Source: Candidatus Limnocylindrales bacterium
GTDB taxonomy: Bacteria; Moduliflexota; Moduliflexia; Moduliflexales; JAUQPW01
DNA: 64,000 nucleotides
Direction: 5' to 3'
NCBI GenBank assembly: GCA_035559535.1
Contig: DATMBG010000044.1
Location: 124,001 to 188,000, forward strand
How positions within the stretch are numbered: the stretch's first letter is position 1; each line of letters starts with the position of its first letter. Positions 39,343 to 64,000 of the stretch are shown here, piece after piece. Under the pieces are notes generated by a model. The model was not told the origin of the DNA and did not search any database. It was given only the letters and a program-made list of their open reading frames with translations. Made by a program: the position numbers and the translations under genes.

Positions 39343-39903
39343 ATGTGGAGGATTCTTAAACTTTTAACCACGCAGGGAAGAGCTAAGGTACCGGGGGGCT
39401 CTCTCTTCCTCTGCCTGCTCTTAGGTGTGATCATAGAGGTACTTTCGACTACCCCGTCTAAGAGCTTCGGCCATGATAGTTCCAACCCTCAAGCTCAAGC
39501 CTTTGAACTTGCCAAGGACTTTAACGGAAAGATGGATCCCCTACTCGCGGTAGGTTTAAGAATGGGTGAATATGCCATGAAAAAATTGGGAGTTAAAAAA
39601 CATGAACTCAAGGTGATTGCCGAGCTTAATTTAGAACCCCCCCAATCTTACATCCTGGATGGTCTCCAGATTATCACAGGGGCTACCTTCGGTAACCGAC
39701 AGATTGAAGTGCTACCTTCGGCTGAACCTAAAATTACCTTTATTAACCTCAATGATGGAGGAGGAAAAGTGACGCTTACGCTATCCAAAAACTTTAGTGA
39801 AAAACTAAATGGGTGGATGAAGGATTGGGGTGACGCGGAGATTGTTTCCTTGTATATTTATACCCTGCCGACTAATGAGGATATTTTTCAAGAAGTTCCT
39901 TAG
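39343..39903 (+). CDS. FmdE-family protein lacking the canonical metal ligands
   Basis: FNGKMDPLLAVGLRMG...PPQSYILDGLQIITGATFGN aligns by eye with FHGHxxP...GxRMG...SCxxDGIQxxTGCT; hydrophobic N-terminus. Confidence 0.65.
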   Translation: MWRILKLLTTQGRAKVPGGSLFLCLLLGVIIEVLSTTPSKSFGHDSSNPQAQAFELAKDFNGKMDPLLAVGLRMGEYAMKKLGVKKHELKVIAELNLEPPQSYILDGLQIITGATFGNRQIEVLPSAEPKITFINLNDGGGKVTLTLSKNFSEKLNGWMKDWGDAEIVSLYIYTLPTNEDIFQEVP

Positions 39904-41113
39904 GGGGTTGCTTCTCCGGGGAGTCGTGGATCAAACCAAAAGATGTCAGATCGGCCTTTAACTTTTCGGCTTTTCCTACCAACTCTCTATAACAGGCTTC
40001 TCGAGTCGAGCCACAGGCAAAAAGGGTGCAAACAGGTTCTCCTTTGTAGATAAGCTCCCCTTCCAGGGGAATATCCCGGATTCCCTTCTCAAACCAATCT
40101 CTTTGAATGGGGGGGACTTTCAAATCTTTTTCGGCAAAGAGAATAGCCTTACCCCAATATCCCTTCTCCAGATAGGTCATAAGATTAAAAGCCGGCAGGT
40201 AACCTTCCAAAGAATTCAGATGGGCCTCCACAATCGGCAGATGGTAGGCTTTTTCAATCAGCTCCATGGCTGCCGTGTAACGAGGGTTGACTTCTAAAAG
40301 ATAGGGGACTCCATCTTTTAAGATAAAATCGATTCCATTAGCTCCCCGGAGTTTAAATTCCCGGGTTAAAAGGGTCGTAATTTCTGCCAGCTCTCCCAGG
40401 AGGTGAGGGCCTTCAGTTTCTCTCCAGACCTTTCCCAGGATGTTTCCACAGTACCTGAATCCCCGGCTACCAAATTCCTCAAGGCCGATAAGTTGTTCTG
40501 TTAAGCCGATCAATACACTATCTTGACCGTTAGCCAGGAACAGGGCAGAGCAAGGCAGACCCGGGATATACTCCTGGATAACCTGTCGAGCTTTTTTTTC
40601 TGGCGCGCTTATCTGGGTAATCCCAAACCCACCCCCGCTACAAATCGGTTTTTGTAAGAATATAGATTGCGAAAATCCAGGATCGCTCTGTTCAATCTTC
40701 CCTTTTCGATCTTCAAAATAGGTTTTGGGGTGGGGAATTTCGGTTCTTTCCAGAAAGGGGAAGAAAATCTTGGGATTACGAATTCGGGAGAGGGTTTTAG
40801 GGGAATTACCCAGCAGAATACTCTTACGCTGAAATTTCTTTAGGAGGGAGGGATAATTTTCCAGATTTGAGGTATAGATAACCGCCTGGAAAGATAAATA
40901 CTGACTGGCAGAAAACAGATTCGAAGCCGTAAAGGGCCTGGAGAAGGTCCGTTTAAGGGAGTAATTCTCACAAAGTCCCTGCAAGTCGTAATCACCGAAG
41001 TAATCCAGGGAGAGAATCTTCCGGGCAGGAAGACTTTTCAAGGCGGATTCGACCATTGCCCGCGTGCTGACTCCAGTTAAAAGGATTCTCATGGAATTCG
41101 ACTTAATCCCCAT
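39872..41113 (-). CDS. ATP-grasp protein of the H4MPT/methanofuran-linked type (COG2232-like)
   Basis: GVSTRAMVESA, LDYFGDYD, QEYIPG, EQLIG, FRYCGNI, LEVNPRY and GEPVCT motifs. Confidence 0.8.
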   Translation of the reverse strand: MGIKSNSMRILLTGVSTRAMVESALKSLPARKILSLDYFGDYDLQGLCENYSLKRTFSRPFTASNLFSASQYLSFQAVIYTSNLENYPSLLKKFQRKSILLGNSPKTLSRIRNPKIFFPFLERTEIPHPKTYFEDRKGKIEQSDPGFSQSIFLQKPICSGGGFGITQISAPEKKARQVIQEYIPGLPCSALFLANGQDSVLIGLTEQLIGLEEFGSRGFRYCGNILGKVWRETEGPHLLGELAEITTLLTREFKLRGANGIDFILKDGVPYLLEVNPRYTAAMELIEKAYHLPIVEAHLNSLEGYLPAFNLMTYLEKGYWGKAILFAEKDLKVPPIQRDWFEKGIRDIPLEGELIYKGEPVCTLFACGSTREACYRELVGKAEKLKADLTSFGLIHDSPEKQPPKELLEKYPH

Positions 41114-41185
41114 AGGTTGACTCAGATTTTAAGCTTATCCAGAATCTGAAGAGAAGGATCTCTTTTTATCCAATTTTTATCGTCT

Positions 41186-42022
41186 TCAAAGCTCCAACAT
41201 AGTCCCTTCGATTCCCGGGATGAGCTGAAAGGTTAAATCAAAAGAGTTTTGGACACCCTGGATGAGGTAATCTAAAAGGAAATCTGTATGACTGGGGTCA
41301 TGGTGGAAGGTAACAAGCCGTTTGACGCCTGTAACGGTAGCAAATTGGATGGTATGGGAAATGGCGCTGTGTCCCCATCCGATACGCTTAGAATACTCCT
41401 CCGGCGTATATTGTGCATCATGGATGAGAAGATCCACCCCTTCGGCCAGGCTAAATCCGGATATCCAATCCGGTTCTCCTGGAAATTCTTTCGCCCCGAG
41501 AGCTGGTTCATGATCCGGCAAGTAGGCGATTGAAGTAGAGCCTTCGGTAATCCGAAAACCCAAGGTCGGTCCGGGGTGACAAACGAGAGAGGCCATAATC
41601 TGAAATCCTCCAATCTGGAAACTGCCTAGAGAGATGTCATGAAGTGTAAGTTGGCAGGGTAAATCCCGTAGCCATACCGGAAAAAGGGGGGGTGAAAGGT
41701 ATCGGGCCAGGCGGGCATGTAAATCCAAGGTTATGGAGGGAGGCCCCCAAATATGGACTTCTTGATCGGGCTGATCTAAGGGTTTGAAAAATCCCAATCC
41801 CTGGATATGATCCATATGAAGATGGGTCAGGAGAAGATCGATACGGGGTACTTCGGGTCCGATAGTGGCCCCCAGACGCCGGATGCCGGTCCCTGCATCC
41901 AGAACTAAGAGAGTCCCATCGGCTCCCCTTACCTCCACACAAGAAGTATTACCTCCGTAGCGGACAGTTTCAGGACCTGGAGCTGCCAGGGAGCCCCGGG
42001 TTCCCCACAGGGTGATTCTCAT
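41186..42022 (-). CDS. MBL-fold metallohydrolase (PhnP/phosphodiesterase-like)
   Basis: MRITLWGTRGS, YGGNTSC, THLHMDHIQG, HDAQY, GWGHS and FHHDP. The ATG overlaps the upstream stop. Confidence 0.88.
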   Translation of the reverse strand: MRITLWGTRGSLAAPGPETVRYGGNTSCVEVRGADGTLLVLDAGTGIRRLGATIGPEVPRIDLLLTHLHMDHIQGLGFFKPLDQPDQEVHIWGPPSITLDLHARLARYLSPPLFPVWLRDLPCQLTLHDISLGSFQIGGFQIMASLVCHPGPTLGFRITEGSTSIAYLPDHEPALGAKEFPGEPDWISGFSLAEGVDLLIHDAQYTPEEYSKRIGWGHSAISHTIQFATVTGVKRLVTFHHDPSHTDFLLDYLIQGVQNSFDLTFQLIPGIEGTMLEL

Positions 42023-42852
42023 AAAGGGTTCTCTTCCTCCCAAAAGATTGCCACGGCACCTAGATGCCGATTTCCTTCTCCTTCCAGTGGAAATGCTGTC
42101 ACTGCAATTCTTCTGAAAATTCCATCCAGACTTCGGATCCAGAATGAACGATGGTCTGCTCGATACTTCTGGAGAGCAATGCTCAGGGGGAGATCCTCGG
42201 GGGAAATAGGAGAACCATCTTCGGCCGTTGGAGTGAAAATGGTAGACCACTCCTCAAAAGGCATTTCACCGGTTTCATTATATCGATGGCCCAGAAGCCT
42301 TTCGGCGGATTCATTGTAAAAAAGCAGGTTTCCGACCGGATCTACCAGGAAGATCGACATGGCAAGATAACTTGAAAGCTGTCGCATGAGGATGACTTCT
42401 ATACACCTGGAAACTTTGAGGTTTTCTACGTTTTGGGCAGCATTTACTACCTGCCTAGGTAGAGGATTTACCTCCCAGAAGATGGATACCGCACCCAGGT
42501 ATCGACCCGCCATTCCCTTTAGGGGGAAGGCGGTAATCTTAATTTTTTTGAAGAGGTTGTTAAAGGTACGAATCCAATAGGCCCGATGGGTTGCCTGGTG
42601 CTTCTGAAGAGCGATTAGTAAGGGTCTGTCTTCCATGGGGAGGGGTGAGCCTTCCTCGGTAATTGCCGGAATCATAGAAGACCATTTTTGCAGAGATACT
42701 TCCCCGATTTCTTTGTATTGACAACCCAGCACTTCTTCAGCCGAACCATTGCAAAAAATTAAGGTTTCACCGGAATCTGCAATAAGGGTGGGTATGGCAA
42801 GATAACTCGCAAGTTGCCGCATTAGAATAATTTCAATATCTTTCTGGGGCAT
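42019..42852 (-). CDS. Tandem PAS-domain protein (internal duplication)
   Basis: Two ~125-aa repeats, each IExILMRQLxSYLA...TAFPL...LGAVxIFWE. Confidence 0.82.
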   Translation of the reverse strand: MPQKDIEIILMRQLASYLAIPTLIADSGETLIFCNGSAEEVLGCQYKEIGEVSLQKWSSMIPAITEEGSPLPMEDRPLLIALQKHQATHRAYWIRTFNNLFKKIKITAFPLKGMAGRYLGAVSIFWEVNPLPRQVVNAAQNVENLKVSRCIEVILMRQLSSYLAMSIFLVDPVGNLLFYNESAERLLGHRYNETGEMPFEEWSTIFTPTAEDGSPISPEDLPLSIALQKYRADHRSFWIRSLDGIFRRIAVTAFPLEGEGNRHLGAVAIFWEEENPL

Positions 42853-42913
42853 AAATCCCCTTTCCGCTCATGGAGGCTTTAGCTGGTCGGGTGGTTTAAG
42901 GATATGTTACTTT

Positions 42914-42947: not shown

Positions 42948-43147
42948 TTATCCCCCAAAAAGTTTACCAAAAAAGCGGGTCAGTTTAGCTAACAAACCTG
43001 CGGGGGCCTCTGTTGGTTTGATTTCCTCGGGTTTTACTGGTTCAGCAGGCTTTGTTTGCTGAGGGGGACCGGCTTTTTCAGCAGATTTTGAGGGTTCTTG
43101 TTGGGTATCATCTAAGGCTGCTTTTTTAATGGGGGATTATCCCCCAT
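42948..43147 (-). CDS. Frameshifted small ORF coupled to fae (Pro-rich linker plus amphipathic C-terminal helix)
   Basis: The ATG overlaps the fae TGA. A -1 shift at A_AAA_AAG (43127-43121) yields 66 aa ending AGLLAKLTRFFGKLFGG. Confidence 0.45.
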
Positions 43148-43638
43148 CAAGCGAAGGGGTGTTTGGCCGTGTCCTTCTTGGCCAGTACTTCATCGATACT
43201 CGGTTCATTTTTCATGGCTCGGGCAATCGCTTGTTTGGTCGCCTCGTAATTATAATCGTAAATTTTCTTCTTATCCTTGGCATCCCAGTGAATAAATACC
43301 CCGACCACAATCACAATATCTTCGACCAATCCTTTAGGAATTACACCGGCTTCAACTGAATCGGCAACGGCTTTAGCCACTGCTGCCTGGGCCGGACCAA
43401 ACATCAATACCGCTTGGTCTCCCCCCTTGATGGTAACCTTATTCACAATAACGGTCGCCGGTTTTGGTTGGAGGTTTGGGGTTAAGACGGCCAGAAGAGC
43501 GGTATGACCCATTCGCGGCGATACAAGGGTTTGGGCAAAGGCCTGACCTACTGGACCTGTTTTGGAACCTATCAGCAAATCTATATGGGCTACTTCATTT
43601 CCATCCCCAACTAGGGATTCACCGATACGCATATCCAT
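43147..43638 (-). CDS. fae: Formaldehyde-activating enzyme
   Basis: IGESLVGDGNEVAHIDLLIG, NKVTIK, MFGPAQAAVAKAV, GVFIHW and HPF; start at MDMRIG with GGAGG RBS. Confidence 0.96.
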   Translation of the reverse strand: MDMRIGESLVGDGNEVAHIDLLIGSKTGPVGQAFAQTLVSPRMGHTALLAVLTPNLQPKPATVIVNKVTIKGGDQAVLMFGPAQAAVAKAVADSVEAGVIPKGLVEDIVIVVGVFIHWDAKDKKKIYDYNYEATKQAIARAMKNEPSIDEVLAKKDTAKHPFA

Positions 43639-43824
43639 AAGAAGTCCCTCCTTTTCTTTAATTAGACCAGACTGGTAAAGATCCAATAAAGGGCGCTCCT
43701 AAAATCTATACCAGCCCGGTAAGGGTTTACAAATTTGTAGGAAAAGCCCATCAGGCTACCTACACCAGGATCTGATGCGCCCATCAAAGATTCTCTTTTT
43801 TATAAGTAGAGACTCACTTTGCTG

Positions 43825-44724
43825 CTAAAGTCGTTTTTTCGCTGCCTCATAGGCAAATTGAAAATCAACAACCGTCATTTTCTCTGCCGTTCTTATCTTA
43901 TCCAGCATGTCCATTTCCACCTTGTATTTTAAGTCTCCAATAACTAAGGCTCCGATGCCCAAGATGCCTGGAACAATCTCGGCTAAATCTTGATTAGAGG
44001 CAAGTCCCTCAATCCCTGACGGAGGTACGGCATTGACATCTGCCACGATTTTACCCGGTGGGAGCTTTTCCAGAATAGCTTTGGAAAGAACCTGAATACC
44101 GGCTTTAGCCGTTGAGAAGATAAGATGAGCCTCTTTAAGAATATCCAGTTTCTTCTCAGGAGTCCAGGCATAATCTCCCTCTACCGAGACCCCATATCGC
44201 TCCTTAAGGGTTTTGGCAATCGTCTCGGCAAATTCCGGACTTCGAGAAGGATCGGTCTCTACAATCTTCGTATGACAACCGTTTTTTGCACACAGCACAG
44301 CAGCTATACGACCGACCGGGCCGGTACCGCCCAGTATAGCCACATTCTTACCCGCTAAATTACCCATTTTGCAAACTTCAAGGGACTTTTCAACCTTGGC
44401 CAGCAAAGCAGAGGCTGTCGAATAAGCTCCTTTGGGATCAATCATGATGGAAACCTGGAAGGGTGGAAACATGTTTTTCTCCACGGCTTTCCAGATATCC
44501 TCTGCTAAATTGAGATCACTTCCTCCTATGAAAATACTTGAAAATTTAGTCCCCCCGACACCCCGAGAAAAAATAATATCTTGAGCCAAAAGCCCGCCGA
44601 TTTGGGGAGTTACATGGGTATAGGGGATAACAATATCGAATCCCACATCATAGGCCATATTAATATCGAAGGGACTTGCATAATCATCAGTTGTAAACAT
44701 ATACAAAAGGTGTTTTCTTTCCAT
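43825..44724 (-). CDS. mtdB: NAD(P)-dependent methylene-H4MPT dehydrogenase (MtdB/MtdC family)
   Basis: SPFDINMAYD, IFSRG, DPKGAYSTA, GGTGPVG, DVNAVPPSGIEG and GIGALVIGDLKY motifs. Confidence 0.85.
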   Translation of the reverse strand: MERKHLLYMFTTDDYASPFDINMAYDVGFDIVIPYTHVTPQIGGLLAQDIIFSRGVGGTKFSSIFIGGSDLNLAEDIWKAVEKNMFPPFQVSIMIDPKGAYSTASALLAKVEKSLEVCKMGNLAGKNVAILGGTGPVGRIAAVLCAKNGCHTKIVETDPSRSPEFAETIAKTLKERYGVSVEGDYAWTPEKKLDILKEAHLIFSTAKAGIQVLSKAILEKLPPGKIVADVNAVPPSGIEGLASNQDLAEIVPGILGIGALVIGDLKYKVEMDMLDKIRTAEKMTVVDFQFAYEAAKKRL

Positions 44725-45068: not shown

Positions 45069-46028
45069 ATGAAACCTGTAAGAGATATTCAAGGAATGCG
45101 ACCTAACGTTCCTATCAGCTTAAGTCGCGTCGGGGTGATAGGAGTCAAGAAAATTATTCCCATTAAGCATGATCGGGGAGCGGATCTTTTTTACTCGGAA
45201 ATGGATTTGTATGCAGACCTGTCTCCTGAGCAAAAGGGTCTCCATATGTCCCGATTCAGTACCATCGTCAATGAGATCATCGATGAGGTGATACGATCGG
45301 CTTCCATGGATCTGGAATCCTTTGCAAAAACCGTTGCAGAGAGAATTAATCGAGAACAGAATACCCTGAAATCCGAAGTAGTCATTCGGGCTAAATATCC
45401 TAGAGACCGTCAAACTCCTGTATCTAACCAGGTTTCTCAGGAAATCTATTCTTTAATCAGTATTGCCGTAAGCACGAAGAACCGAACCCGGACCATTGTG
45501 GGTGGGGAAGCCCAGGGTATGACGGTATGTCCCTGTGCGCAGGAAATGGTCCGGGAACATTCCAGGAAAAAACTCTGGGAAGCCGGATTTACCGAAGAGG
45601 ACATTGAAAAAATCTTAGCCACCGTACCGCTTTCCTCCCATAATCAACGAGGAGAAGGAACCCTGTTTGTCGGAACAGACCTGAAAATCAATGTGGACGA
45701 TCTGGTAGATATTGTAGAAGCCTCCATGAGCTCTCAGATTTATCAACTTTTAAAAAGACCGGACGAATTCTTTATCGTACACAAAGCCCATACCCATCCC
45801 ATGTTTGTAGAAGATGTAGTCCGAGAGATGCTTCGAGCGGTCCTGGTTAAATACCCGAACCTCTCCGATGAGAGTTTTCTCCTGGCCAGGCAGCGAAATT
45901 TTGAAACCATCCATAGCCATGACGTCTTTGCAGAACGATACGGTACGGTCAAAGAGATCCGCGAAGAACTCTTTCAGGGAAAGTATCTTACCCGACATAC
46001 TACCCTGCGGAGCTGGTTGGAGGATTAA
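45069..46028 (+). CDS. mptA: GTP cyclohydrolase of the FolE2/MptA family
   Basis: KGLHMSRF, GMTVCPCAQ, HNQRG, LKRPDE, FVEDVVR and ETIHSHD; MptA assignment rests on the H4MPT gene context. Confidence 0.75.
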   Translation: MKPVRDIQGMRPNVPISLSRVGVIGVKKIIPIKHDRGADLFYSEMDLYADLSPEQKGLHMSRFSTIVNEIIDEVIRSASMDLESFAKTVAERINREQNTLKSEVVIRAKYPRDRQTPVSNQVSQEIYSLISIAVSTKNRTRTIVGGEAQGMTVCPCAQEMVREHSRKKLWEAGFTEEDIEKILATVPLSSHNQRGEGTLFVGTDLKINVDDLVDIVEASMSSQIYQLLKRPDEFFIVHKAHTHPMFVEDVVREMLRAVLVKYPNLSDESFLLARQRNFETIHSHDVFAERYGTVKEIREELFQGKYLTRHTTLRSWLED

Positions 46029-46131: not shown

Positions 46132-46866
46132 TTACCGAATAGCTTCCAGATCCTCCCGGGTAATCCTCCCATTATGGAAAGCGGTAGCAATTAAAGCTCC
46201 TCTAACCCCCAGTTCCTTTAAGGAAATAAGGTCTTCTACTCCCCTGATCCCTCCTCCTACCAGGAGCGTGATATCGGGGTGTTCTCGAAGAATATCCTTG
46301 AGGAGCTCCCCGGCTATGCCGCTCTCTGTTCCAACTTTCGCCAACTCCAGGAAGATAAATTGCCCTATACCCATCGACTTAATTCGATGGATAAGCGAAA
46401 CAGGATCCAAACTTCGAAGTTCCTCGGATTCAGAAAGGACTTTTCCCTCTTTCATATCAAGACTGAATAGGACCCGATCAGAAGGCACCTCTTTTAAAAT
46501 AGAAGCAAGTTCCCATAAACCGCTTAACGTTTCAGAACCCACGATCAATTGATGAATTCCCAAACCCATTACCTGTAAAGCCGATTCCAGATTATTCACT
46601 CCCGCATCTACCATGATCTGACCGTCCGGCAGGTTCTGCACAATCTCTGACAAAATCTTATCAGGCTTTCTTTTCCTTTGAATGGCATCCAAATCGGCTA
46701 TATAAAACCGGGAACATCCCAGTTTATCTTGAAAAGCCTTTAGTACGGCAAGAGGTTCTGCGCTATCCACCAAAATACTTTGAATTTTCTCATATCGGTC
46801 ACGTTCTCCTTTTTTAGCATGGACCACGTAACCACCCTTGAGATCTATCACCGGAATGACTTGCAT
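46132..46866 (-). CDS. HisA/HisF-related TIM-barrel protein (C1-cluster type)
   Basis: IPVIDLKGGYVVHA..GERDRY, YIADLDAI, VGSET and VGGGIRG motifs. Confidence 0.85.
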   Translation of the reverse strand: MQVIPVIDLKGGYVVHAKKGERDRYEKIQSILVDSAEPLAVLKAFQDKLGCSRFYIADLDAIQRKRKPDKILSEIVQNLPDGQIMVDAGVNNLESALQVMGLGIHQLIVGSETLSGLWELASILKEVPSDRVLFSLDMKEGKVLSESEELRSLDPVSLIHRIKSMGIGQFIFLELAKVGTESGIAGELLKDILREHPDITLLVGGGIRGVEDLISLKELGVRGALIATAFHNGRITREDLEAIR

Positions 46867-50778: not shown

Positions 50779-50876
50779 ACTAAAGTGTCTTTTAAGCACC
50801 TGAGGGGGATTTCGTTTCCATATCTTATGTTGGTGGTAAGTTTAAGTAAACTAAAGTGTCTTTTAAGCACCTGAGG
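50768..50876. repeat. Perfect 38-bp direct repeat separated by a 33-bp spacer
   Basis: agtttaagtaaactaaagtgtcttttaagcacctgagg at 50768-50805 and 50839-50876. Confidence 0.9.
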
Positions 50877-50931
50877 TGGCAAAAGTCTCTACCTTGCTGT
50901 TTTTAAATATTTATCTTGAAGGATCGTGAAG

Positions 50932-54286: not shown

Positions 54287-54420
54287 TGGAGTAAGGGGTA
54301 TGGGAGTGTGGGGGTATGGAAGTAGGGGGGTATTAAAAATTTCTCCCACACTTTTCTACTCCCACACTCCCATACTTCTCACTCCTACCCTCCCATCCTG
54401 ACACTCCGCTACTTCTCTAT
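54287..54420. repeat. 8-nt short tandem repeats with inverted halves
   Basis: tggagtaa ggggtatg ggagtgtg ggggtatg gaagtagg ... ctcccaca cttttcta ctcccaca ctcccata. Confidence 0.8.
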
Positions 54421-54425
54421 ATCGG

Positions 54426-55535: not shown

Positions 55536-55657
55536 GTAACTGTAACAATTTAGTAGATGTCACTTTTTCTGTCTGAATACCCCCCCCCGCTAGCCTCCCT
55601 CCAGGGGGGCCAGCGGGGGGGTGTTTCTTTTTCCATCTACTAAATTGATATGAATAC
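55536..55657. mobile_element. MITE-like element, family 1, copy B
   Basis: gtaactgtaacaatttagtagatgtcactttttctgtctgaa ... gtgtttctttttccatctactaaattgatatgaatac. Arms nearly identical to 3541-3695; flanks ttgtaagac/tttcaagac. Confidence 0.8.
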
Positions 55658-55761
55658 TTTCAAGACTAACTGAAAGGCGTAAGGAAGGAAGTAGTCCTTG
55701 ATGAGTTCTCTCTACCTGTGACTTTTCATCAAAGAGTACTTCATCTTATGATTCTACAGGA

Positions 55762-56922
55762 ATGATATCTAAAAAAGCGATGGAAATATCTCCCTTTATT
55801 GTTATGGAAGTTCTAGAAAGGGCCCATGAGATAGAAAAGCAGGAAAAAGGTTCGGTCATTCACCTGGAGGTTGGGGAGCCTGATTTTAACACCCCTTCCT
55901 GCATTATCGAAGCTGCCGTAGAAGCCCTTCGACAGGGAGATACCCACTACACCCATAGCATGGGGCTTCTAGAACTTCGAGAAGCCATTGCCCGGCATTA
56001 TCAGGAAAAGTATCAAGTTTGTATTTCACCGGACCAGATTATTGTAACTTCAGGAACGTCCCCGGCTCTATTTCTCATTTTTGCTTCCCTCCTTGAACCT
56101 GGGGATGAAGTTATTTTATCTAATCCTTGCTATGCCTGTTATCCCAATTTTATAACCCTGCTAGGTGGAGTTCCCTGCTATGTGGAGGTTGAAGAAAAAG
56201 AAGGGTTCCAATATACGCCGGAGAAAATTAACGAAAAACTCTCCAAACGGACCAAGGCTATTTTACTTAACTCTCCCTCAAATCCTACCGGCAACCTGTT
56301 ATCTGCAGAAACCATGCAACGTATCGCTTGTTTTTCGCCTTTTATTATTTCAGATGAAATTTACCATGGTCTGGTTTATGAAGGAAGGGAACATTCTATC
56401 TTAGAATTTACCCGTCGTGCTTTTGTTTTAAACGGATTTTCCAAGCTATACGCTATGACAGGATGGCGTTTAGGTTATGTAATAGCTCCCCCGGAATTTG
56501 TTCGTCCCATGCAGAAAATTCAGCAGAACTTTTTTATCTCTGCCAGTTCCTTTGCTCAACGGGGTGGAATTGCAGCTTTAACTCTTCCTCAGGTTAAAGA
56601 AGAAGTTCAGAGGATGGTCGATCTCTACAATATAAGAAGAAAACTCATGCTAAGAAAATTACGAGAGGGTGGATTTGAAATTACCGTGGACCCTACCGGT
56701 GCCTTTTATGTATTTGCCCGCGCCGATAGGTTTGGAAAGGATTCCTATAAACTGGCCTTTGATATTTTAGAAAATGCCCATGTGGCCGTTACCCCTGGAA
56801 TTGATTTCGGAAAAAAAGGAGAAGGATATCTGCGATTTTCCTATGCTAACTCCATAGAGAACATCGAAGAAGGTCTTCGAAGAATAAATCAGTATCTTCA
56901 TCAAAGAATCCCCCTGGGTTAG
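55762..56922 (+). CDS. PLP-dependent class I/II aminotransferase (MfnC/aspartate aminotransferase-like)
   Basis: HLEVGEPDF, NSPSNPTG, SDEIYHG, FSKLYAMTGWRLG and LRFSYA motifs. Confidence 0.9.
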   Translation: MISKKAMEISPFIVMEVLERAHEIEKQEKGSVIHLEVGEPDFNTPSCIIEAAVEALRQGDTHYTHSMGLLELREAIARHYQEKYQVCISPDQIIVTSGTSPALFLIFASLLEPGDEVILSNPCYACYPNFITLLGGVPCYVEVEEKEGFQYTPEKINEKLSKRTKAILLNSPSNPTGNLLSAETMQRIACFSPFIISDEIYHGLVYEGREHSILEFTRRAFVLNGFSKLYAMTGWRLGYVIAPPEFVRPMQKIQQNFFISASSFAQRGGIAALTLPQVKEEVQRMVDLYNIRRKLMLRKLREGGFEITVDPTGAFYVFARADRFGKDSYKLAFDILENAHVAVTPGIDFGKKGEGYLRFSYANSIENIEEGLRRINQYLHQRIPLG

Positions 56923-57050: not shown

Positions 57051-57485
57051 GTGCTGTTCCCAAAATTCAGATTACTGGAAAGGAGGGTTGGAGTGATAAG
57101 GGAAATCTTGAGGAGGACAGGTTATGGGATGGTGGCTTTTGTGCTCATGATAGCAGGTATCATGCCTCACGTGATATCTGCTGCTGAAGGAAATCCGCCT
57201 GCAGCCGGAGATCCCGAACATGGAAAAGCACTTTTTCTTAGATATTGTCAGGGGTGCCATGGCCCAGATGGAAGGGGAGGAGCCCAGACTTTTATGCCCC
57301 ACGTGGATAATCTCACCCGAAAGGGATACATCGAGAAGCTTTCTGATGAGTATCTGTTTCAGGTAATATCCAAAGGAGGAGCTGCCATGGGAAAAAGTGC
57401 TTATATGCCAGCCTGGGAAAAAGTATTGCAGAGGCAAGATATCTTGGATGTGATTGCCCATATCCGGAAACTTCCTACCTATTGA
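57051..57485 (+). CDS. Mono-haem c-type cytochrome, exported
   Basis: CQGCH, YMPAW axial Met and a hydrophobic signal; start uncertain. Confidence 0.88.
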   Translation: MLFPKFRLLERRVGVIREILRRTGYGMVAFVLMIAGIMPHVISAAEGNPPAAGDPEHGKALFLRYCQGCHGPDGRGGAQTFMPHVDNLTRKGYIEKLSDEYLFQVISKGGAAMGKSAYMPAWEKVLQRQDILDVIAHIRKLPTY

Positions 57486-57866
57486 TATGTTTATACTCGA
57501 GTTCTAGACGGGAGTCGATCCGGGACCGGGGAAAGATGATAGGGAATCCTAAAGAAATGGAAAAACCTGGTCTTTTTCTTATCCCTCAATCTTCGATCCT
57601 CTCTCCTCGATCTTCAAACCGTTTAGTACAAAAGTTCAGTGTCTAAAGTCACCTGATGGCTTATGCGGTAAGGTGATTCAAAGAATCGGTAAAGTTTTGT
57701 AATTGGCTGGATAGAAGGTGTTGGAGAGGTTTATGCTTTTGATCTATTTCTAAAAAGATACTCATGAAAGTAGCTATATAGGTCTTCTCCTTTCTCCCAG
57801 GGCATAGAAGAGGAATGAGGAGCGGGGATAACCTGAATAGTTACAATCAGGAAGAAGGAGAAAATA

Positions 57867-59507
57867 ATGAAAAATTTTACCTGGTTAGTACTTGCTGGGA
57901 TTGTAGGGATTTTTGCTATCATGATACCAACCGATTTACAAGGAGCCAGTAAGTCTGGGGATTGGACCAGGCGTACCGCTGTAAAACCGGATCCATCAAA
58001 GATTGTAATAGCTCCCGGCTACAAAGTAGAAGTTTTTGTGGCCGGATTGGATACTCCTTCCTCTGCAACCGTTGATAAAGACGGCAATGTTTGGGTAGCG
58101 ATTTCAGGGCCTTTGTTTGGAGGTCCAGACCCGACCGAGCCACCCCATGTAAAGGTTTTCGATAAAAACGGTAAACTTCTGAAAGAAATTGGCAAGGGGG
58201 TCTTCAAGACGGTAATGAATGAAATCGGATACTGCCCGGATAATAGTATTACCTATATTCCCGAATATGGCGAGAAGATTTGGGAGATCGAAGGAGTTAA
58301 TGGAGAGTTACGTCTGATTATCAAAGATCTCTTTATAGGGGATCACCGTAATGGTGGGATCACCTGTAAGGATGGATGGTTATACTTTGCTCTGGGTTTT
58401 CCCAGCAATACCGGCTTTGCGGATCCAGATAATCATGGATGGACCGATATTCCCAACGATCCCTTCTGGGTCAAACACCCGGATGGGTTAGGCACCACCC
58501 CCCATGACCCCGTCTGTCGGGATATTGTCCATACAGGGTTAAACATTAAATCCTCCGATGGCCGGATGACGGGTGCCTTGATGCCGGTAGGTGTGCCGGC
58601 TAAACCTGGGCAGATCGTCAAAGCGCAGGTTCCCTGTGGTGGATCTATTATGCGGGTGAAAATTAGCGATAAGGGTCCGGATGGGATTTATCCCCATGAA
58701 AAGATGGAAGTCTATGCCTTTGGCTTCCGGAATCAATCGGGAGTTGCCTTTGGGCCCAAGGGGACGCGATTCGAAAATGCTCTGGCAGTCACCGATAACG
58801 GTGCCAATGACCTGGGTCACCGTCGGATTGCCAATGGTGCTGAAAAACTATTTATCGTAACGGAAAAGGGTCAGGATGCCGGCTTCCCCGACAAGGAAGG
58901 CTTTGGCTTTGTAACCAACAAGCGCTTTGGTTGGGAAATGTATGAAGGTAATCCGGTCAAAAATCCTTATCCTAACCTCTATATCGGGGACAAACCCTTC
59001 GTCCCTACGGTTTGGCCCTATCGCTTCCAGGTCCATGTGAGTGGTACTCGAGGAGTCCCTCTCATCGCTGCGAATCCTAATCCGAACGGTTATATCAACC
59101 CTGTTTTAGAATGGGATACCAATAACCCTATTGACGGTATTGCCTGGAGCTTCAGTGATCAGTTTGGATTCAAAGGAGACTTATTCGGGGCCGTGTACGG
59201 TATCCTGGATACGGGACCTGAGAGCCTGGTACCAACCTGGCCGGCCGTCCTCCGTATCCACTTCCTGGAACCTACCGGGGTGAAGTGGGAGTATTTCATG
59301 CGGAATATCGATATGGGACCTAACGCCTATCAGAAGCCTGAAAATGTTGGAGGGTTGGAACGCCCCAATGATGTCGTCTTTAGTCCCGACGGAAATATCA
59401 TGTATGTGGTAGATTATGGGGAAGTAGCTGTGGATTTCTATGAACCAAGACCCTTTTACACCACCCCGAAGTCCGGAGTAATCTGGAAAGTAACAAAAGC
59501 CCAATAA
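57867..59507 (+). CDS. Exported beta-propeller protein of the glucose/sorbosone (PQQ-type) dehydrogenase-like family
   Basis: Signal peptide; PGYKVEVFVAGLDTP, YAFGFRN, LERPNDVVFSPDG.MYVVDYG and GVIWKV. Confidence 0.72.
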   Translation: MKNFTWLVLAGIVGIFAIMIPTDLQGASKSGDWTRRTAVKPDPSKIVIAPGYKVEVFVAGLDTPSSATVDKDGNVWVAISGPLFGGPDPTEPPHVKVFDKNGKLLKEIGKGVFKTVMNEIGYCPDNSITYIPEYGEKIWEIEGVNGELRLIIKDLFIGDHRNGGITCKDGWLYFALGFPSNTGFADPDNHGWTDIPNDPFWVKHPDGLGTTPHDPVCRDIVHTGLNIKSSDGRMTGALMPVGVPAKPGQIVKAQVPCGGSIMRVKISDKGPDGIYPHEKMEVYAFGFRNQSGVAFGPKGTRFENALAVTDNGANDLGHRRIANGAEKLFIVTEKGQDAGFPDKEGFGFVTNKRFGWEMYEGNPVKNPYPNLYIGDKPFVPTVWPYRFQVHVSGTRGVPLIAANPNPNGYINPVLEWDTNNPIDGIAWSFSDQFGFKGDLFGAVYGILDTGPESLVPTWPAVLRIHFLEPTGVKWEYFMRNIDMGPNAYQKPENVGGLERPNDVVFSPDGNIMYVVDYGEVAVDFYEPRPFYTTPKSGVIWKVTKAQ

Positions 59508-59602
59508 ATCTTAGCAGGGGTGACCCTCCCTGGTATCAAATTAAGGATTAGACCTGGCTCTAGAAGTGGAAATAAGGTTTCTCCCTTGCTCAGCTTAATA
59601 TT

Positions 59603-59630
59603 TAGGGGGTGATCTCAGAGTCACCCCCTA
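59603..59630. terminator. Hairpin between convergent genes
   Basis: tagggggtga/tcacccccta inverted repeat. Confidence 0.5.
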
Positions 59631-59765
59631 CGGTCTCAAGAAAATCCTCTCCATACCTGGGTGCTTCTTCGGTTTTCTTTTTATCCCTACGAAACCCAGG
59701 TTATCCCGACCCTATTCCTCTGAGAAGTTAACAGGAATAATTAATTATAATCTTATCCCGATTTG

Positions 59766-60695
59766 CTATTTCAAAGTTAGCAAATAGGCGACAATGTCAT
59801 AAAGTTCTTGATCGGTTAGATTAATCGTGGGCATAAGGGATACATTTCGAGGAACCTTATTTTGAAGGTCATTCTTTGAAAAAATCAAAGATTCGTCCTG
59901 GGCAGTCCGAATTTGGATGGAGTAATCGTCCTCATGCTTGATAATCCCAATAAATCGCTTTCCCTCCTTGGTCACAATTTGTACGGGTGTAAATTCTGGA
60001 GCGATATAGGCGCTGGGATTTTGGATAGATTCTAGAAGATACTCTGGAGATCTATCTCCAATATGGCTCAAATCGGGTCCAACTTTTCCACCTTGCCCGT
60101 TTACGGTATGACAGTTAATACAGCCTGCCTTACCGTTTGGATCCTTAAATAAGGCTTCTCCGGCTTTGGGATCCGGTGTAATTCCGGCAGGAGGTTTCCA
60201 TTCTGAGGTGGTTACTTTTTGAACTTCTTTGGAGGGATAACGCTGAGCCCAATCTCCATAGGTTGCCTGACTTCGAAGGTAGGCAATGATCTTCCAGATT
60301 TTATCTTCATTCAGTTTCTCAGCCGTCAGAAAAGCCCCCATCTGAGTTCCGGGTCGTCCATGGGCGATGGTCTCAAACACTGCTTCATCCGTCCCTCCCC
60401 ATTTCCAAAACTCATCGGTTAAGTTAGGGCCTTTAGCCCCCCTGGCGCCTGTTCCATGACAAAAAGCGCAGTAGCTTTTGTAGAGGGCAGCTCCCTCCTC
60501 TACTGCCTGGGCATTCCCCTCGTAGGGATTTTTTACCCCAGAGCTCTGGACGGCCAAAGCAAGATTTTCGTTTAAAAATAGAAAACTAAATCCAAATATC
60601 CCCAGGAAAAGAAAAAAAATTAAAGCAGACTGACTGACCAAAGGCTTGAGAAGTTTTTTCACAACTATTCCTGTCCGTGTTCCTGAAACACTCAT
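59766..60695 (-). CDS. Di-haem c-type cytochrome (cytochrome cL/XoxG-like domain plus putative haem-binding domain)
   Basis: CAFCH and CINCH; NPYEGN, GPNLTD, GPDLSHIG and SLMP. ATG at 60695 has an AGGAG RBS. Confidence 0.85.
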   Translation of the reverse strand: MSVSGTRTGIVVKKLLKPLVSQSALIFFLFLGIFGFSFLFLNENLALAVQSSGVKNPYEGNAQAVEEGAALYKSYCAFCHGTGARGAKGPNLTDEFWKWGGTDEAVFETIAHGRPGTQMGAFLTAEKLNEDKIWKIIAYLRSQATYGDWAQRYPSKEVQKVTTSEWKPPAGITPDPKAGEALFKDPNGKAGCINCHTVNGQGGKVGPDLSHIGDRSPEYLLESIQNPSAYIAPEFTPVQIVTKEGKRFIGIIKHEDDYSIQIRTAQDESLIFSKNDLQNKVPRNVSLMPTINLTDQELYDIVAYLLTLK

Positions 60696-60727
60696 AGCTT
60701 TGACTCCTTTCTTTTGAAGACCCACCG

Positions 60728-61585
60728 CTATTCCTCTGGAAAAGGAAGATAAAAAGGTACTCCGTATTTGGAGAGAATCTCTTTAATCTGTCCACCCTTT
60801 AAGAGCTCTTCTAATATGGAATCCAGAGCCTCTTTTAAATCTTTATCTTCTTTCCTTATGGCAACGGCAATGTTCCATCGTAAAGTAGCTTCAGGTGTGT
60901 AGTTCTCAACCAATTTAGCATTACTTTCCGGGTGTTCCTTTAACGAAGACCCTGCCATGGGGGCCCAAACCAGGGCCACCTCTAATTCTCCTTTTTTCAT
61001 AGCTTCCAGGATTTCAGGGACAAAGCGATATAAACTTCGCTCATATCCGTTCTTAAACAAATACCAATCGGCCGGGGTCGTCATCTCAACCCCTATCTTT
61101 TTCCCCTTGGCACTACTGAGATCCTTAATGGCATTATCATCCCGGCGGGTTAGAAGTATAAAACCGGTTCCGAAATAAGGTCTAGTAAGTATAAGCCCCT
61201 TTTCCTCCATTTCTTCCTCGGCTTCTTTACCGGTCGGTAAGCCCATAAAGGCCTCGCATTTTTTCTCTAAAATGGAGTTACGCAATGCACGCCCTAATCC
61301 ACCCCGTGTACCGGTATCAATCCAGAAAAATTGAGCCTGTACCCCAAGCTTTTGGGCAATTACGTTCGCTATTTCCACATCAAACCCTGGATTTCCCGGA
61401 TTATTAGCCGAAAAAGGAAAGTTGTAGGGATCTGCACAGAATGTAATCACCCCCATGGTTTTTATTCGTTCCAAGGCACTCCTTTTTTCTTCGGCTCCTT
61501 CAGAAATGGAGCAGAGTATAAGTAAGGATACAAAAAATGTTATCAATGGCTTTAGCATCGTATAGTCCTTCAGATAATTCTTCAC
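60728..61585 (-). CDS. Quinoprotein-dehydrogenase-associated substrate-binding protein (XoxJ/MxaJ-like)
   Basis: FCADPYNFPFS, GFDVEIA, LTRPYF, VWAPMAG and ILSKYGVP; directly downstream of the dehydrogenase. Confidence 0.85.
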   Translation of the reverse strand: MKNYLKDYTMLKPLITFFVSLLILCSISEGAEEKRSALERIKTMGVITFCADPYNFPFSANNPGNPGFDVEIANVIAQKLGVQAQFFWIDTGTRGGLGRALRNSILEKKCEAFMGLPTGKEAEEEMEEKGLILTRPYFGTGFILLTRRDDNAIKDLSSAKGKKIGVEMTTPADWYLFKNGYERSLYRFVPEILEAMKKGELEVALVWAPMAGSSLKEHPESNAKLVENYTPEATLRWNIAVAIRKEDKDLKEALDSILEELLKGGQIKEILSKYGVPFYLPFPEE

Positions 61586-61602
61586 GTTACTTATCTCCTT
61601 TT

Positions 61603-61639: not shown

Positions 61640-61689
61640 CATAAAGATATACTCCTGGAGCGACCCGATCCTTGCCTGTGGGTGATCTT

Positions 61690-63411
61690 TTACTCAGGAA
61701 GACCGAATACAAATACCGCACCACCTTTGGATTGGGTCTTCATCCATTCTTTATAATGTAACGGCCATAATCCACCACCCCCAGGACCTACCACGATAGC
61801 TACCAGCTGTTTACCATTCGCCGTAAAGGTAGTGGGGTTACCATGAATACCGGTCCCTACGTTGAAGCTCCAGAGCATTTCACCTGTGGTATCATCTAAG
61901 GCCATAAACATACCCTGAGGGTTCCCGTAGAAGACCAGCCCTCCGGCTGTAGCGAGAACACCACTTGTGGAAGGTGTAGAATCGGCCCGCATCCATTTAA
62001 GCTGACCCGTAGCTGCATCGAAGGCCTTTAAAGCACCGTTTCCAGGATTCAAACGGATCACCTTTGCTCCCAGATACCATTCCCCGCGTTTCCAATCCAT
62101 TTTCAGAGCCTGGAGATCCATGGAAAAATTATAGGTAGGCACATAGGCCATCTGGGTTTTGGGGCTGTAGGCTATCGGATGCCATTCTTTCCCTCCATCC
62201 AGGGTCGGAGCGATATCCTTCGTAACTTTATCATAAACGACATCTTTCTCGGGCCAGTTCATCTCAGGTTTACAATTCTCACCAAATTTCTTGACCCAGT
62301 TCACACGTCCCAGAGGAACTACATAATTACACTTTGCAGTCGTCCGATCCACAGAGTAAAAATGGCCGTTTCGATCTCCATGAAGCCAGACTTTCTTTCC
62401 ACCTACATCGGCTAAAACCACCTCATTAACCCCATCATAATCATAGGGATCGTTGGGAGTATACTGGAAATACATTTTTATTTTACCTGTATCCGGATCT
62501 AAAACCAGGGTTGAATTGGTATAAAGGTTATCTCCAGGTCGGACATGCCGGTCAAAATCAGGACCCGGGTTACCCACCGGCCAGTAAAGGTTATTGAGCT
62601 CAGGATCATAGGAACCCGTAATCCAGGCAGAACCACCTCCGTATTTCCAGGACTCTCCACCCCAGGTCTCAGAACCCGGCTCACCGGCTGCAGGAATTGT
62701 GTAAGTTTTCCAGACCTGTTCTCCGGTCTCTGCATCCACAGCAGCAATCCAGCCCCGCACGCCATATTCTGCTCCAGAGGTTCCAATGATGATCTTACCT
62801 CGAAGGGCCATGGGCATAAGGGTCAAACTCTCCGAGTATTTATAATCCCCCATGGGTTTATCCCATACCACCTTTCCTGTAGCATTATCCAGGGCTACAA
62901 GATGGGCATCCAGCGTAGCCAGGTAAACCTTATCATGATAGAGGGCTACTCCACGGTTTACCACATCGCAGCAGAGATGGGGATAAAGATCTGCGGGCAG
63001 TTCACGTTCATATTTCCAGAAAACTTTTCCGGTTTCACAATCTGCTGCAAAAACCTTATTAAAAGAAGAAGTTACGTAACATCTTCCGTTATAAGCAACA
63101 ACTTGGCTGTCCTGACCCTCCAAAGCTCCAAAGGAAAGAGACCATTTGGGGACCAGTTTTTTCACATTGCTTTTATTGATCTGACTTAGAGGACTATACC
63201 GTGTGCTGGCATAATCTCGTCCGTACAGCAGCCAGTTATTGGGGTCTTTATCGGCATTGAGAAGCATATCATCGGTTACATATTCAGGACGTTGAACGGC
63301 TTCTATAACCTCCATACCCGGTATCTGAGCACGTACTGAAGCAGGTAACAACAGGACCAAAGATACAAACAGGACTACCACTGCTGTAGCAGAAAAAATA
63401 ACTTTTTTCAT
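61690..63411 (-). CDS. PQQ-dependent alcohol/methanol dehydrogenase with lanthanide-type D-Y-D motif
   Basis: Signal peptide; RYSPLSQIN, vicinal CCDVVNRG, GAEYGVRG, GNPGP, RPGDNLY, DPYDYDGVNE and GGAVFVFGLP. Confidence 0.92.
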   Translation of the reverse strand: MKKVIFSATAVVVLFVSLVLLLPASVRAQIPGMEVIEAVQRPEYVTDDMLLNADKDPNNWLLYGRDYASTRYSPLSQINKSNVKKLVPKWSLSFGALEGQDSQVVAYNGRCYVTSSFNKVFAADCETGKVFWKYERELPADLYPHLCCDVVNRGVALYHDKVYLATLDAHLVALDNATGKVVWDKPMGDYKYSESLTLMPMALRGKIIIGTSGAEYGVRGWIAAVDAETGEQVWKTYTIPAAGEPGSETWGGESWKYGGGSAWITGSYDPELNNLYWPVGNPGPDFDRHVRPGDNLYTNSTLVLDPDTGKIKMYFQYTPNDPYDYDGVNEVVLADVGGKKVWLHGDRNGHFYSVDRTTAKCNYVVPLGRVNWVKKFGENCKPEMNWPEKDVVYDKVTKDIAPTLDGGKEWHPIAYSPKTQMAYVPTYNFSMDLQALKMDWKRGEWYLGAKVIRLNPGNGALKAFDAATGQLKWMRADSTPSTSGVLATAGGLVFYGNPQGMFMALDDTTGEMLWSFNVGTGIHGNPTTFTANGKQLVAIVVGPGGGGLWPLHYKEWMKTQSKGGAVFVFGLPE

Positions 63412-63691
63412 GACTTTATTCCCTCCCTGGTTAAAAAATCTTACCTTACAAGGAGAATTTTTTTACCGGCCTGTTAAAAATTCCCCTGTAAATTTCAGGT
63501 TTTCATTATTTATTTAACAATCCAACTATCCGACTTTAAATCACCTCCTTCCCATGGTGAAGACGCGGCTTAGGAAAATTATAACCACCTCAGATCAACC
63601 TATTTGGGTTATCATGGGTTGAACGATTAAAATCTGAATAAATTTCTTTAAAGAAACCTCGAAATCTCCTTTACTACCAGGAATACCAAGG

Positions 63692-63719
63692 ATTCTATCT
63701 ATTTAGCGAAATTTGTCAA
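63692..63719 (-). promoter_or_regulatory. Putative sigma-70 promoter for the dehydrogenase operon
   Basis: Minus strand TTGACA-N16-TAGAAT. Confidence 0.5.
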
Positions 63720-63902
63720 CACAAAAAATTCCAAAATATCCCTGTCCATTAAATCGGTACTAGATTAACTCTTTTGGTGCAGTCTAAGTTTGATTGTTCT
63801 TCATAGAGCTTTCTAAGGTACCGACCAGATTAATACTGATACGCCTCCAGCATTGAAACCTATTTTCTTTGTAGTTTCTATAGTTCTAGAAAAGAAGGTG
63901 GG

Positions 63903-63930
63903 AACCAGCTGCCTTCTAGGGCAGCTGGTT
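63903..63930 (-). terminator. Hairpin after the edge gene
   Basis: aaccagctgcc/ggcagctggtt inverted repeat just downstream of the stop at 63957. Confidence 0.55.
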
Positions 63931-63956
63931 TGGAGAGAAGAAAGCTTTCAGGATAC

Positions 63957-64000
63957 TTATTCACTGAGTGCGAAGACCCAGATCACTCCACCTTGCAGGA
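63957..64000 (-). CDS. C-terminus of a second PQQ-dependent dehydrogenase (partial)
   Basis: Minus strand reads LQGGVIWVFALSE*, the typical quinoprotein ADH ending and similar to KGGAVFVFGLPE of the neighbour. Confidence 0.65.
   Translation of the reverse strand, partial: LQGGVIWVFALSE

Follow-up and report, generated by a model that had tools for sequence, protein, structure and literature searches.

We analyzed a 64,000-nucleotide stretch from Candidatus Limnocylindrales bacterium (hereafter, the window; positions 124001–188000 of contig C44 in genome G000). Its right-hand part encodes enzymes for formaldehyde oxidation on tetrahydromethanopterin (H4MPT), biosynthetic proteins for the associated cofactors, and alcohol dehydrogenases (ADHs) dependent on pyrroloquinoline quinone (PQQ). 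The window probably holds one of four dispersed gene sets that would together oxidize methanol or other alcohols to CO2. From its gene content, the host is predicted to be an NC10-like methylotroph or alcohol oxidizer without methane monooxygenase, that is, a known metabolism in an unexpected host. Two features make the case noteworthy: an apparent dependence on other organisms for PQQ and an apparently intact Fwd-type formyl-methanofuran enzyme in a putative aerobe. A sequence-only reading of the window, made without database searches, had proposed that alcohol oxidation is coupled to H4MPT-dependent formaldehyde oxidation; the rest of the genome supports this predicted coupling.

Pfam and NCBIfam scans covered 21 open reading frames (ORFs) between 39.9 and 63.4 kb. 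The genes assigned to the handling of one-carbon (C1) units and to cofactor biosynthesis are as follows, with bit scores and model cut-offs:

43147–43686, minus strand: fae, formaldehyde-activating enzyme (TIGR03126, 264.5 bits; cut-off, 118)
43825–44724, minus strand: methylene-H4MPT dehydrogenase of the MtdA/B/C family (Pfam Mpt_N, 96.6 bits; PDB match to MtdA 1lu9, 139 bits)
45069–46028, plus strand: mptA, the GTP cyclohydrolase that opens methanopterin biosynthesis (TIGR00294, 295.8 bits; cut-off, 220)
46132–46866, minus strand: HisA/HisF-related, Orf17-like protein (TIGR00734, 138 bits, below the cut-off of 179.85; Pfam His_biosynth, 144.9 bits)
47090–48094, plus strand: MfnD/MyfA-like ATP-grasp protein (NF040722, 144 bits, below the cut-off of 400)
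48091–49149, plus strand: MfnF/Orf9-like protein (TIGR03123, 348.7 bits; cut-off, 244)
49177–49857, plus strand: MfnE/Orf21-like protein (NF040622, 151.6 bits, below the cut-off of 300)

Most genes named in the sequence-only reading were thus recovered, at differing strength. Those for Fae, the Mtd family, MptA, the MfnF-like protein, and the PQQ-ADH scored above their cut-offs, whereas the HisA-, MfnD-, MfnE-, MoxJ-, and PedB/C-like genes were present but below the equivalogue cut-offs. The pairing of fae with mtd is common, occurring in 60 of 81 Fae loci (80 named loci plus that of G007, a sister species of the same genus); a PQQ-ADH within the same 20-kb locus is rare (6/81). Fae shares 99% identity with its G007 counterpart and no more than 75% with any of the 80 named loci. 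The neighboring dehydrogenase had been called MtdB-like. Its family membership stands, and by sequence we leave the choice among MtdA, MtdB, and MtdC at the family level: its best named match is from a metagenome-assembled genome (MAG) of Methylomirabilis sp. (55% identity), compared with 36–41% for fae-adjacent alphaproteobacterial copies and 28–33% for planctomycete copies.

The block from 46.1 to 49.9 kb fits methanofuran or methylofuran biosynthesis, as judged from the homologies of its products. According to PMC8141765, Orf22 corresponds to MfnB, Orf21 to MfnE, and Orf9 to MfnF, and the HisA/HisF-like Orf17 and ATP-grasp ligases are linked to methylofuran synthesis. The MfnD-, MfnF-, and MfnE-like genes overlap or stand 27 bases apart. 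On the archaeal equivalogue model NF040623, the MfnF-like protein scored 263.5 bits, below the cut-off of 520. One further gene had been proposed to encode an MfnC-like enzyme:

55762–56922, plus strand: class I/II aminotransferase (Pfam Aminotran_1_2, 207 bits; best NCBIfam model, PRK08960, 400 bits, below the cut-off of 554)

That assignment gave way to a generic class I/II aminotransferase, which matched no MfnC-specific model in the NCBIfam scan. A role as MfnC is possible; the bacterial MfnC is described as not yet identified, even in Methylorubrum extorquens, in PMC8141765.

The sequence-only reading correctly listed mch, fhc/ftr, mfnB, mptG, and the pqq genes as lying outside the window. 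Searching the genome located mch, Ftr, the formyl-methanofuran enzyme genes, mptG, and mfnB on contigs C50 and C34, so the rest of the pathway is present. Contig C50 carries, in order, fwdD, fwdB, a DUF1097 gene, fwdA, ftr, fwdC, mch, a sensor kinase gene, and mptN. Each of the five C1 enzyme subunits with an NCBIfam match scored above cut-off (mch, TIGR03120, 401.7 bits; ftr, TIGR03119, 419.6; fwdA, TIGR03121, 800.6; fwdB, TIGR03129, 552.2; fwdC, TIGR03122, 275.2), and FwdD exceeded its Pfam cut-off. A second Ftr gene, whose product is 49% identical to the first and also above cut-off (TIGR03119, 338.9 bits), lies 3.5 kb past the window end. The island on C34 comprises mptG, mfnB (C34:10280–11023; PF04476, 261.7 bits; cut-off, 22.4), and genes for HPPK, FolB, a pterin-binding protein, DUF447, DUF1464, and a CitG-like protein.

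A formyl-methanofuran enzyme of the Fhc kind had been anticipated; the enzyme is present, but its sequence identifies it as the archaeal/NC10 redox-type Fwd. Subunit B aligns over its full length to archaeal FwdB (8rja_B, 441 bits; 5t5i_B, 429 bits), compared with 68 bits to M. extorquens FhcB (6s6y_B). Its CxxCxxxC and SVCH motifs align with the 4Fe-4S cluster motif and Cys118-His119 of FwdB, and a FwdD homologue is encoded directly before it. FhcB is reported to have dispensed with four features (tungstopterin motif, Cys118, 4Fe-4S domain, and FwdD), a loss that accounts for the release of formate by Fhc (PMC6926001). PMC5020050 describes fwdD as retained by Archaea, Synergistetes, Firmicutes, and NC10 and not by Proteobacteria or Planctomycetes. 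With a catalytic Cys, a 4Fe-4S motif, and a FwdD partner all present, the enzyme was classed as Fwd-type rather than as the proteobacterial Fhc formyltransferase/hydrolase. Across the Fae loci, 21 of 81 include a match to subunit B; SVCH or TVCH is kept in 7 of these 21, and FwdD accompanies it in 6 of the 7. These six loci belong to Methylomirabilis, Methylomirabilota, and Rokubacteria MAGs, one MAG labeled Planctomycetia, and one labeled Actinomycetota. The C50 cluster (L005:5493–12199) itself combines the bacterial gene order B-A-D-C with archaeal FwdB motifs and additional genes for FwdD and a DUF1097 membrane protein.

Turning to the dehydrogenases, the right end of the window encodes two PQQ-ADHs and two partner proteins:

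61690–63411, minus strand: PQQ-ADH (TIGR03075, 591.3 bits; cut-off, 480)
60728–61585, minus strand: MoxJ/XoxJ-like periplasmic binding protein (TIGR03871, 116.3 bits, below the cut-off of 212)
59766–60725, minus strand: diheme cytochrome c, candidate electron acceptor of the ADH (CxxCH at residues 86 and 202; MoxG-like TIGR03872, 60.9 bits; TIGR02603, 107 bits)
63957–64000 (the last 44 bases of the window), minus strand: second PQQ-ADH of 585 amino acids, in full at C44:187957–189714 (TIGR03075, 601 bits)

The prediction of a PQQ dehydrogenase with an Asp-Tyr-Asp motif and XoxJ-like and cytochrome partners was borne out by score, motifs, and gene adjacency. The first enzyme (hereafter, the window ADH) contains vicinal cysteines (HLCCDVVNRG) and Asp-Tyr-Asp (PYDYDGVNE), which aligns with WDFDGVNE of PedH; both motifs were also aligned to the XoxF encoded by the same genome. 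The second Asp of the Asp-x-Asp motif is what we take to be a lanthanide ligand. Among solved structures, the window ADH is closest to PedH (6zcw, 375 bits), ahead of XoxF from strain SolV (4mae, 342 bits); its identity to the XoxF of the same genome is 41%. As judged from PDB bit scores and identity rather than from a reference tree, it is not a member of the XoxF clade. Its best 120 public relatives are 67–97% identical, and the few labeled ones among them belong to Rhodospirillaceae, Planctomycetota, Burkholderiales, and Betaproteobacteria MAGs. By sequence, the window ADH thus falls in a clade of its own, widespread yet uncharacterized and with no solved member. The second PQQ-ADH, which begins 546 bases past the first and extends beyond the window end, has Asp-Trp-Asp, lacks Cys-Cys, and is likewise closest to PedH (358 bits).

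A true XoxF is encoded on the same contig, 52 kb upstream of the window (C44:70887–72734; 801 bits to 4mae, 779 to 6oc5, and 395 to PedH), with a WDYDGVNE motif identical to that of 4mae in the alignment. Its gene is followed by genes for an SBP_bac_3 (XoxJ-like) protein and a diheme cytochrome c. The two operons therefore share a three-gene layout, their partners being 33% (XoxJ-like) and 38% (cytochrome) identical. Genome-wide, the PQQ-ADH family numbers 13 loci, 11 of them above the family cut-off, with mutual identities of 28–78% and XoxF scoring highest. In a MAFFT alignment of the 13 paralogues, the Asp at the lanthanide position is conserved in all 13, the catalytic Asp in 11, and Cys-Cys in 9. 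Three paralogues (C7:47071–48885, C25:62987–64804, and C37:24861–26684) share 77–78% identity; two of these have Ala or Gly at the catalytic Asp position but retain the second Asp and Cys-Cys. Homologues of four PQQ-ADH accessory families occur nearby, all under cut-off (TIGR03864, 217 bits versus 302; TIGR03861, 175 versus 241; TIGR03871, 116 versus 212; TIGR03866, 254 versus 287). Beside the second PQQ-ADH, 3–5.4 kb past the window end, are genes for a Rieske protein, an MTHFS-like cyclo-ligase, and the second Ftr, and further out are genes for a PQQ-system-like beta-propeller, DoxX/DoxD, a sensor kinase, and a sigma-54 regulator.

Despite 13 PQQ-ADH paralogues, the host apparently lacks its own PQQ synthesis, as far as its gene content tells. 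The genome search for pqq genes that had been suggested did not recover pqqB, pqqC, or pqqE. No pqqC was found in the nine genomes of the phylum by a search that was positive in four of five named control genomes; for pqqE, the best match in the genome was 129.7 bits against a cut-off of 381; and pqqB was found in neither genome of the genus, pqqA and pqqD not being among the genes searched. The two genomes of the genus are 95.8% and 97% complete. Methanol dehydrogenases in the company of absent PQQ biosynthesis genes have a published precedent in NC10 (PMC6028718).

The host had been suspected to lie outside the Alpha-, Beta-, and Gammaproteobacteria, and this proved correct: it belongs to a separate GTDB phylum whose nine species genomes fall into two families, one represented by this genus (G000 and G007) and the other, its sister family, by seven genomes (3.4–8.4 Mb). 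The main body of RpoB (1,470 amino acids) is 60–67% identical to one Rokubacteria MAG and two Acidobacteriota MAGs; for a Planctomycetota MAG and the unclassified MAG holding the nearest Fae, the range is 41–57%. A short C-terminal stretch is 69–79% identical in all five. Fae, mptG, mfnB, form I RuBisCO, and heme-copper oxidase are each found in two of the nine phylum genomes, always those of this genus. The PQQ-ADH search, run on 31 genomes including all nine of the phylum, gave the same picture, with matches above cut-off in G000 and G007 and in none of the seven sister-family genomes. A quick tree built from 82 Fae sequences recovered the genus as a separate starred pair within an unresolved group that also includes archaeal, Rokubacteria/Methylomirabilota/Acidobacteriota, and Planctomycetota clades. 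This group is separated from a Pseudomonadota/Gemmatimonadota/Actinomycetota group by a branch with 92% support (Shimodaira–Hasegawa-like approximate likelihood ratio test) that was not starred. The Fae tree that had been called for thus identified the pair but resolved no clade with the NC10 group. Literature searches found no publication describing this lineage, whose name was not usable as a query.

From the genes, motifs, and distributions above, we infer the substrates, metal use, direction of flux, and expression of the following route. In the periplasm, PQQ-ADHs with the extra Asp typical of lanthanide enzymes would oxidize alcohols, with PQQ taken up from outside, and would pass electrons to diheme cytochromes c and on to heme-copper oxidases, of which G000 and G007 have four copies each. 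Fae would bind formaldehyde to H4MPT for oxidation by the adjacent Mtd, and Mch and Ftr would transfer the C1 unit to methanofuran. The Fwd-type dehydrogenase would then probably free CO2 directly. The genome additionally encodes a separate formate dehydrogenase (alpha subunit, 855 bits) and formyltetrahydrofolate synthetase. Carbon would most likely be fixed by the Calvin cycle, for which the genome carries a cbbR / cbbL-cbbS-cbbX / prk cluster (form I RuBisCO, NF003252, 770.9 bits versus 438; RuBisCO_small, 136 bits; CbbX, TIGR02880, 504 versus 459; PRK, 289 versus 236). XoxF together with the Calvin cycle is reported to support methanol growth in Bradyrhizobium and Sinorhizobium (PMC12628762). 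A search for pmoA that was positive in Methylocystis and Methylosinus gave no match in G000 or G007; no mmoX-type family was found in G000, a weak result since no control matched.

Several observations weigh against this predicted route. The dehydrogenases would be functional only if PQQ is scavenged because PQQ synthesis was not found. As the ADHs encoded in the window are not of the XoxF type, they may oxidize something other than methanol. A hexulose-phosphate synthase is present in the genome, with no hexulose-phosphate isomerase above cut-off. The Calvin cycle could serve another energy source, given a cytosolic-type [NiFe]-hydrogenase cluster (ferredoxin-like, NAD-binding, small, and large subunits and HycI protease) that follows an NrfA-type cytochrome c552 gene at C41:14000–26000. 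Planctomycetes are not known to grow on C1 compounds. H4MPT genes are also reported in bacterial groups outside the known methylotrophs, Planctomycetes among them (PMC5020050). Finally, the 5.6-Mb assembly (~45% G+C) is in 58 contigs, with an estimated completeness of 95.8% and contamination of 4.1%.

In an alternative that we consider unlikely but that merits discussion, the host is a general alcohol and aldehyde oxidizer and not a methylotroph, its many PQQ-ADHs act on diverse alcohols, H4MPT serves only to detoxify formaldehyde, and the Calvin cycle supports hydrogen-driven or other lithotrophy. The 13 divergent ADH paralogues, most of them not XoxF-like, would suit such a lifestyle, as would the hydrogenase, the occurrence of H4MPT genes in non-methylotrophs, and the fact that an ethanol dehydrogenase, PedH, is the best solved relative of both right-end ADHs. 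Set against it are the true XoxF operon, complete with XoxJ-like and cytochrome genes on the same contig, and the investment in complete cofactor biosynthesis across three islands; moreover, an NC10 methanotroph is reported to combine the same modules with the Calvin cycle (PMC8498564). A reductive direction, in which a redox-competent Fwd fixes CO2 onto methanofuran as in methanogens, seems very improbable. Subunit B does keep the FwdB catalytic and cluster motifs alongside FwdD, and archaeal Fwd is a CO2-reducing system (PMC6926001). Yet Fae and the PQQ-ADHs indicate formaldehyde as the input, four heme-copper oxidases and a Calvin cycle are present, and no F420-dependent Mer equivalogue appeared, the luciferase-like proteins near the window scoring 60–72 bits against cut-offs of 349 (TIGR03555) and 276 (NF002619), in an analysis that did not extend to mtr, mcr, or acs.

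That the island comes from an organism other than that of the marker genes, through misassembly or binning, is scarcely credible: the fragmentation and estimated contamination given above and the position of RpoB on a short 16.7-kb contig would allow it, but C1 and ADH genes lie on at least 12 contigs of 76–521 kb (far more than 4% of the genome), the large ones carrying housekeeping genes, the sister species G007 has the same complement, and contigs from another study show the same gene order. The window contig itself measures 237 kb, and the window has an even G+C content (0.40–0.48 per 2-kb step); its left 39 kb is occupied by ordinary genes such as truB, moaA, fumarase, a Mrp-type ATPase, ATP synthase a and c, scpB, and an AcrB-type pump. 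In X7, an independent assembly from the other study, the 43.5–52.5 kb segment has the same gene order on one 20-kb piece at ~92% identity, and most of the remaining window occurs in further pieces. Contigs of runs X2 and X3 leave parts of the window uncovered.

We also compared the predicted oxidation of methanol or other alcohols to CO2 with known systems. The closest combination in print is NC10. "Candidatus Methylomirabilis oxyfera" pairs PQQ methanol dehydrogenases with an H4MPT/methanofuran route that keeps fwdD (PMC5020050), fixes carbon by the Calvin cycle (PMC8498564), and is reported to lack PQQ biosynthesis genes (PMC6028718). A Methylomirabilis sp. MAG also supplies the closest named FwdB (69%), FwdA (67%), and FwdD (55%), in addition to the Mtd match given above. 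NC10 differs in belonging to another phylum (the RpoB of the present host is ~63% identical to that of a Rokubacteria MAG) and in its Fae, which is only 65% identical and forms no resolved joint clade; here, pmoA was not found in either genome of the genus and 13 ADH paralogues are present. The Methylomirabilis MAG included in the pqqC search does carry pqqC.

Other systems share parts of the arrangement. XoxF of Methylacidiphilum fumariolicum SolV resembles that of this genome in score and motif, and verrucomicrobial methanotrophs also assimilate carbon through the Calvin cycle, but they are reported to lack Fae (PMC8498564), whereas a full H4MPT set is present here; in addition, XoxJ and the cytochrome are separate genes in this genome, and XoxF lies outside the window. 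The "archaeal-like" cluster of M. extorquens shares fae, mtd, mch, and the order B-A-D-C, and that organism has homologues of MfnB (Orf22), MfnE (Orf21), MfnF (Orf9), Orf17, and the ATP-grasp ligases (PMC8141765); the four features that its FhcB is reported to have lost (PMC6926001) are all kept here. The ped cluster of Pseudomonas putida, with the lanthanide-dependent ethanol dehydrogenases PedH/ExaF, offers the best solved relative of both right-end ADHs, an aligned Asp-x-Asp, and homologues of the four accessory families, but here the accessory matches are all under their curated cut-offs, the window ADH has its own clade, and no PQQ synthesis was found in the host. Binatota, an uncultured phylum in which methylotrophy is predicted from genomes, has XoxF with xoxG and xoxJ in nine MAGs; according to the preprint, its members carry genes for making PQQ, are without the H4MPT route, and rely on the serine cycle (10.1101/2020.09.14.296780). 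This genome is the opposite on the first two counts and has the Calvin cycle.

If the predicted route is correct, it adds a phylum-level lineage of possible consumers of methanol or volatile alcohols that use rare-earth enzymes. Thirteen PQQ-ADH paralogues with no pqqB, pqqC, or pqqE found would imply cofactor dependence on neighboring cells, and an intact Fwd-type enzyme in an oxidase-rich bacterium provides a test of whether the bacterial H4MPT route ends in CO2 or formate. The contrast between the genus and its sister family offers a compact case for the gain of aerobic C1 metabolism. A more elaborate scenario is tentative and, on balance, doubtful: the genus may be an aerobic Calvin-cycle methylotroph or alcohol oxidizer that scavenges PQQ and lanthanides and that acquired an NC10-like C1 module within an otherwise oxidase-free phylum, its Fwd oxidizing formyl-methanofuran to CO2 under oxic conditions. 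We know of no aerobic bacterium for which direct oxidation of formyl-methanofuran to CO2 by a Mo/W Fwd has been shown biochemically.

Between the aminotransferase and the diheme cytochrome c are two further genes, the second of which is a quinoprotein lead:

57051–57485, plus strand: monoheme cytochrome c (one CxxCH)
57867–59507, plus strand: 546-amino-acid ORF, predicted six-bladed propeller, no family above cut-off

Two quinoproteins beyond the dehydrogenase had been proposed for the window; the 546-amino-acid ORF remains a lead on the strength of its fold, whereas the ORFs at 53288–54025 and 54426–55403 matched no family. The AlphaFold model of the 546-amino-acid ORF (mean predicted local distance difference test score, 65.9; predicted template modeling score, 0.72) retrieved PQQ pyranose and sugar dehydrogenases at the top of a fold search (6jt5, E = 5e-13; 3a9g; 1cq1). 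Among the best 14 matches, 13 were PQQ sugar/pyranose dehydrogenases or AA12 proteins (E values, 5e-13 to 4e-8; template modeling scores, 0.45–0.65 by target length). Pfam GSDH matched 9 of 29 family members (best E, 0.021), and the ORF lies near clusters named glucose/sorbosone or PQQ sugar dehydrogenase in the Atlas. Sequence and profile searches of the PDB returned only NHL "Pizza" repeat matches. Considering the modeled fold, we regard the protein as a fair candidate for a quinoprotein. It has 315 relatives at E ≤1e-10, the best 120 being 69–89% identical. The segment with the monoheme cytochrome c and this ORF is skipped in contigs from two other samples, runs X7 and X3, which join 57110 to 59012 and 57137 to 59659, respectively.

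The remaining genes of the region are as follows:

39343–39903, plus strand: FmdE-domain protein (Pfam FmdE, 51.1 bits; cut-off, 22.9), just left of where the sequence-only reading began the island
39872–41113, minus strand: ATP-grasp ligase (Pfam ATP-grasp_3, 79.5 bits)
41186–42250, minus strand: metallo-beta-lactamase-fold hydrolase (Pfam Lactamase_B_2, 69.3 bits)
42019–42852, minus strand: PAS-domain protein (PAS_8, PAS_9)
49864–50778, plus strand: ATP-binding cassette (ABC) transporter ATPase (TIGR01188 drrA, 328.9 bits; cut-off, 312), 7 bases 3' of the MfnE-like gene
51023–51826, plus strand: ABC-2 permease (best match, DrrB)
51862–53271, minus strand: tetratricopeptide repeat protein
53288–54025, minus strand: ORF, no family; low-complexity, rich in Glu/Lys/Leu/Gln by eye
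54426–55403, minus strand: ORF, no family; of the same low-complexity composition by eye

Both ligases taken for ATP-grasp enzymes are such, the second having the sub-threshold MfnD-like match listed above; a homologue of the first shares a locus with fae in 40 of the 81 Fae loci. The hydrolase ORF overlaps the PAS ORF, so its true start is probably further in. Both also adjoin fae in G007, with identities of 84% (hydrolase) and 91% (PAS protein). The transporter genes, previously described as PedB/C-like, do form an ABC-2 pair, but their best matches are DrrA and DrrB, and the PQQ-system models TIGR03864 and TIGR03861 (PedC) gave the sub-threshold scores reported with the accessory families. 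In the left part of the window, a 1,538-amino-acid membrane protein (22915–27531, minus strand) contains both DUF2298 and a PMT_2 glycosyltransferase-like domain. Intergenic runs of octamer-like units (CCCAYAC and similar), along with a 41-nt direct repeat, occur at 50768–51020, 54288–54385, and about 55536–55660. The genome holds 104 clusters of such units, which coincide with break points of independent assemblies and where contig depth rises ~10-fold.

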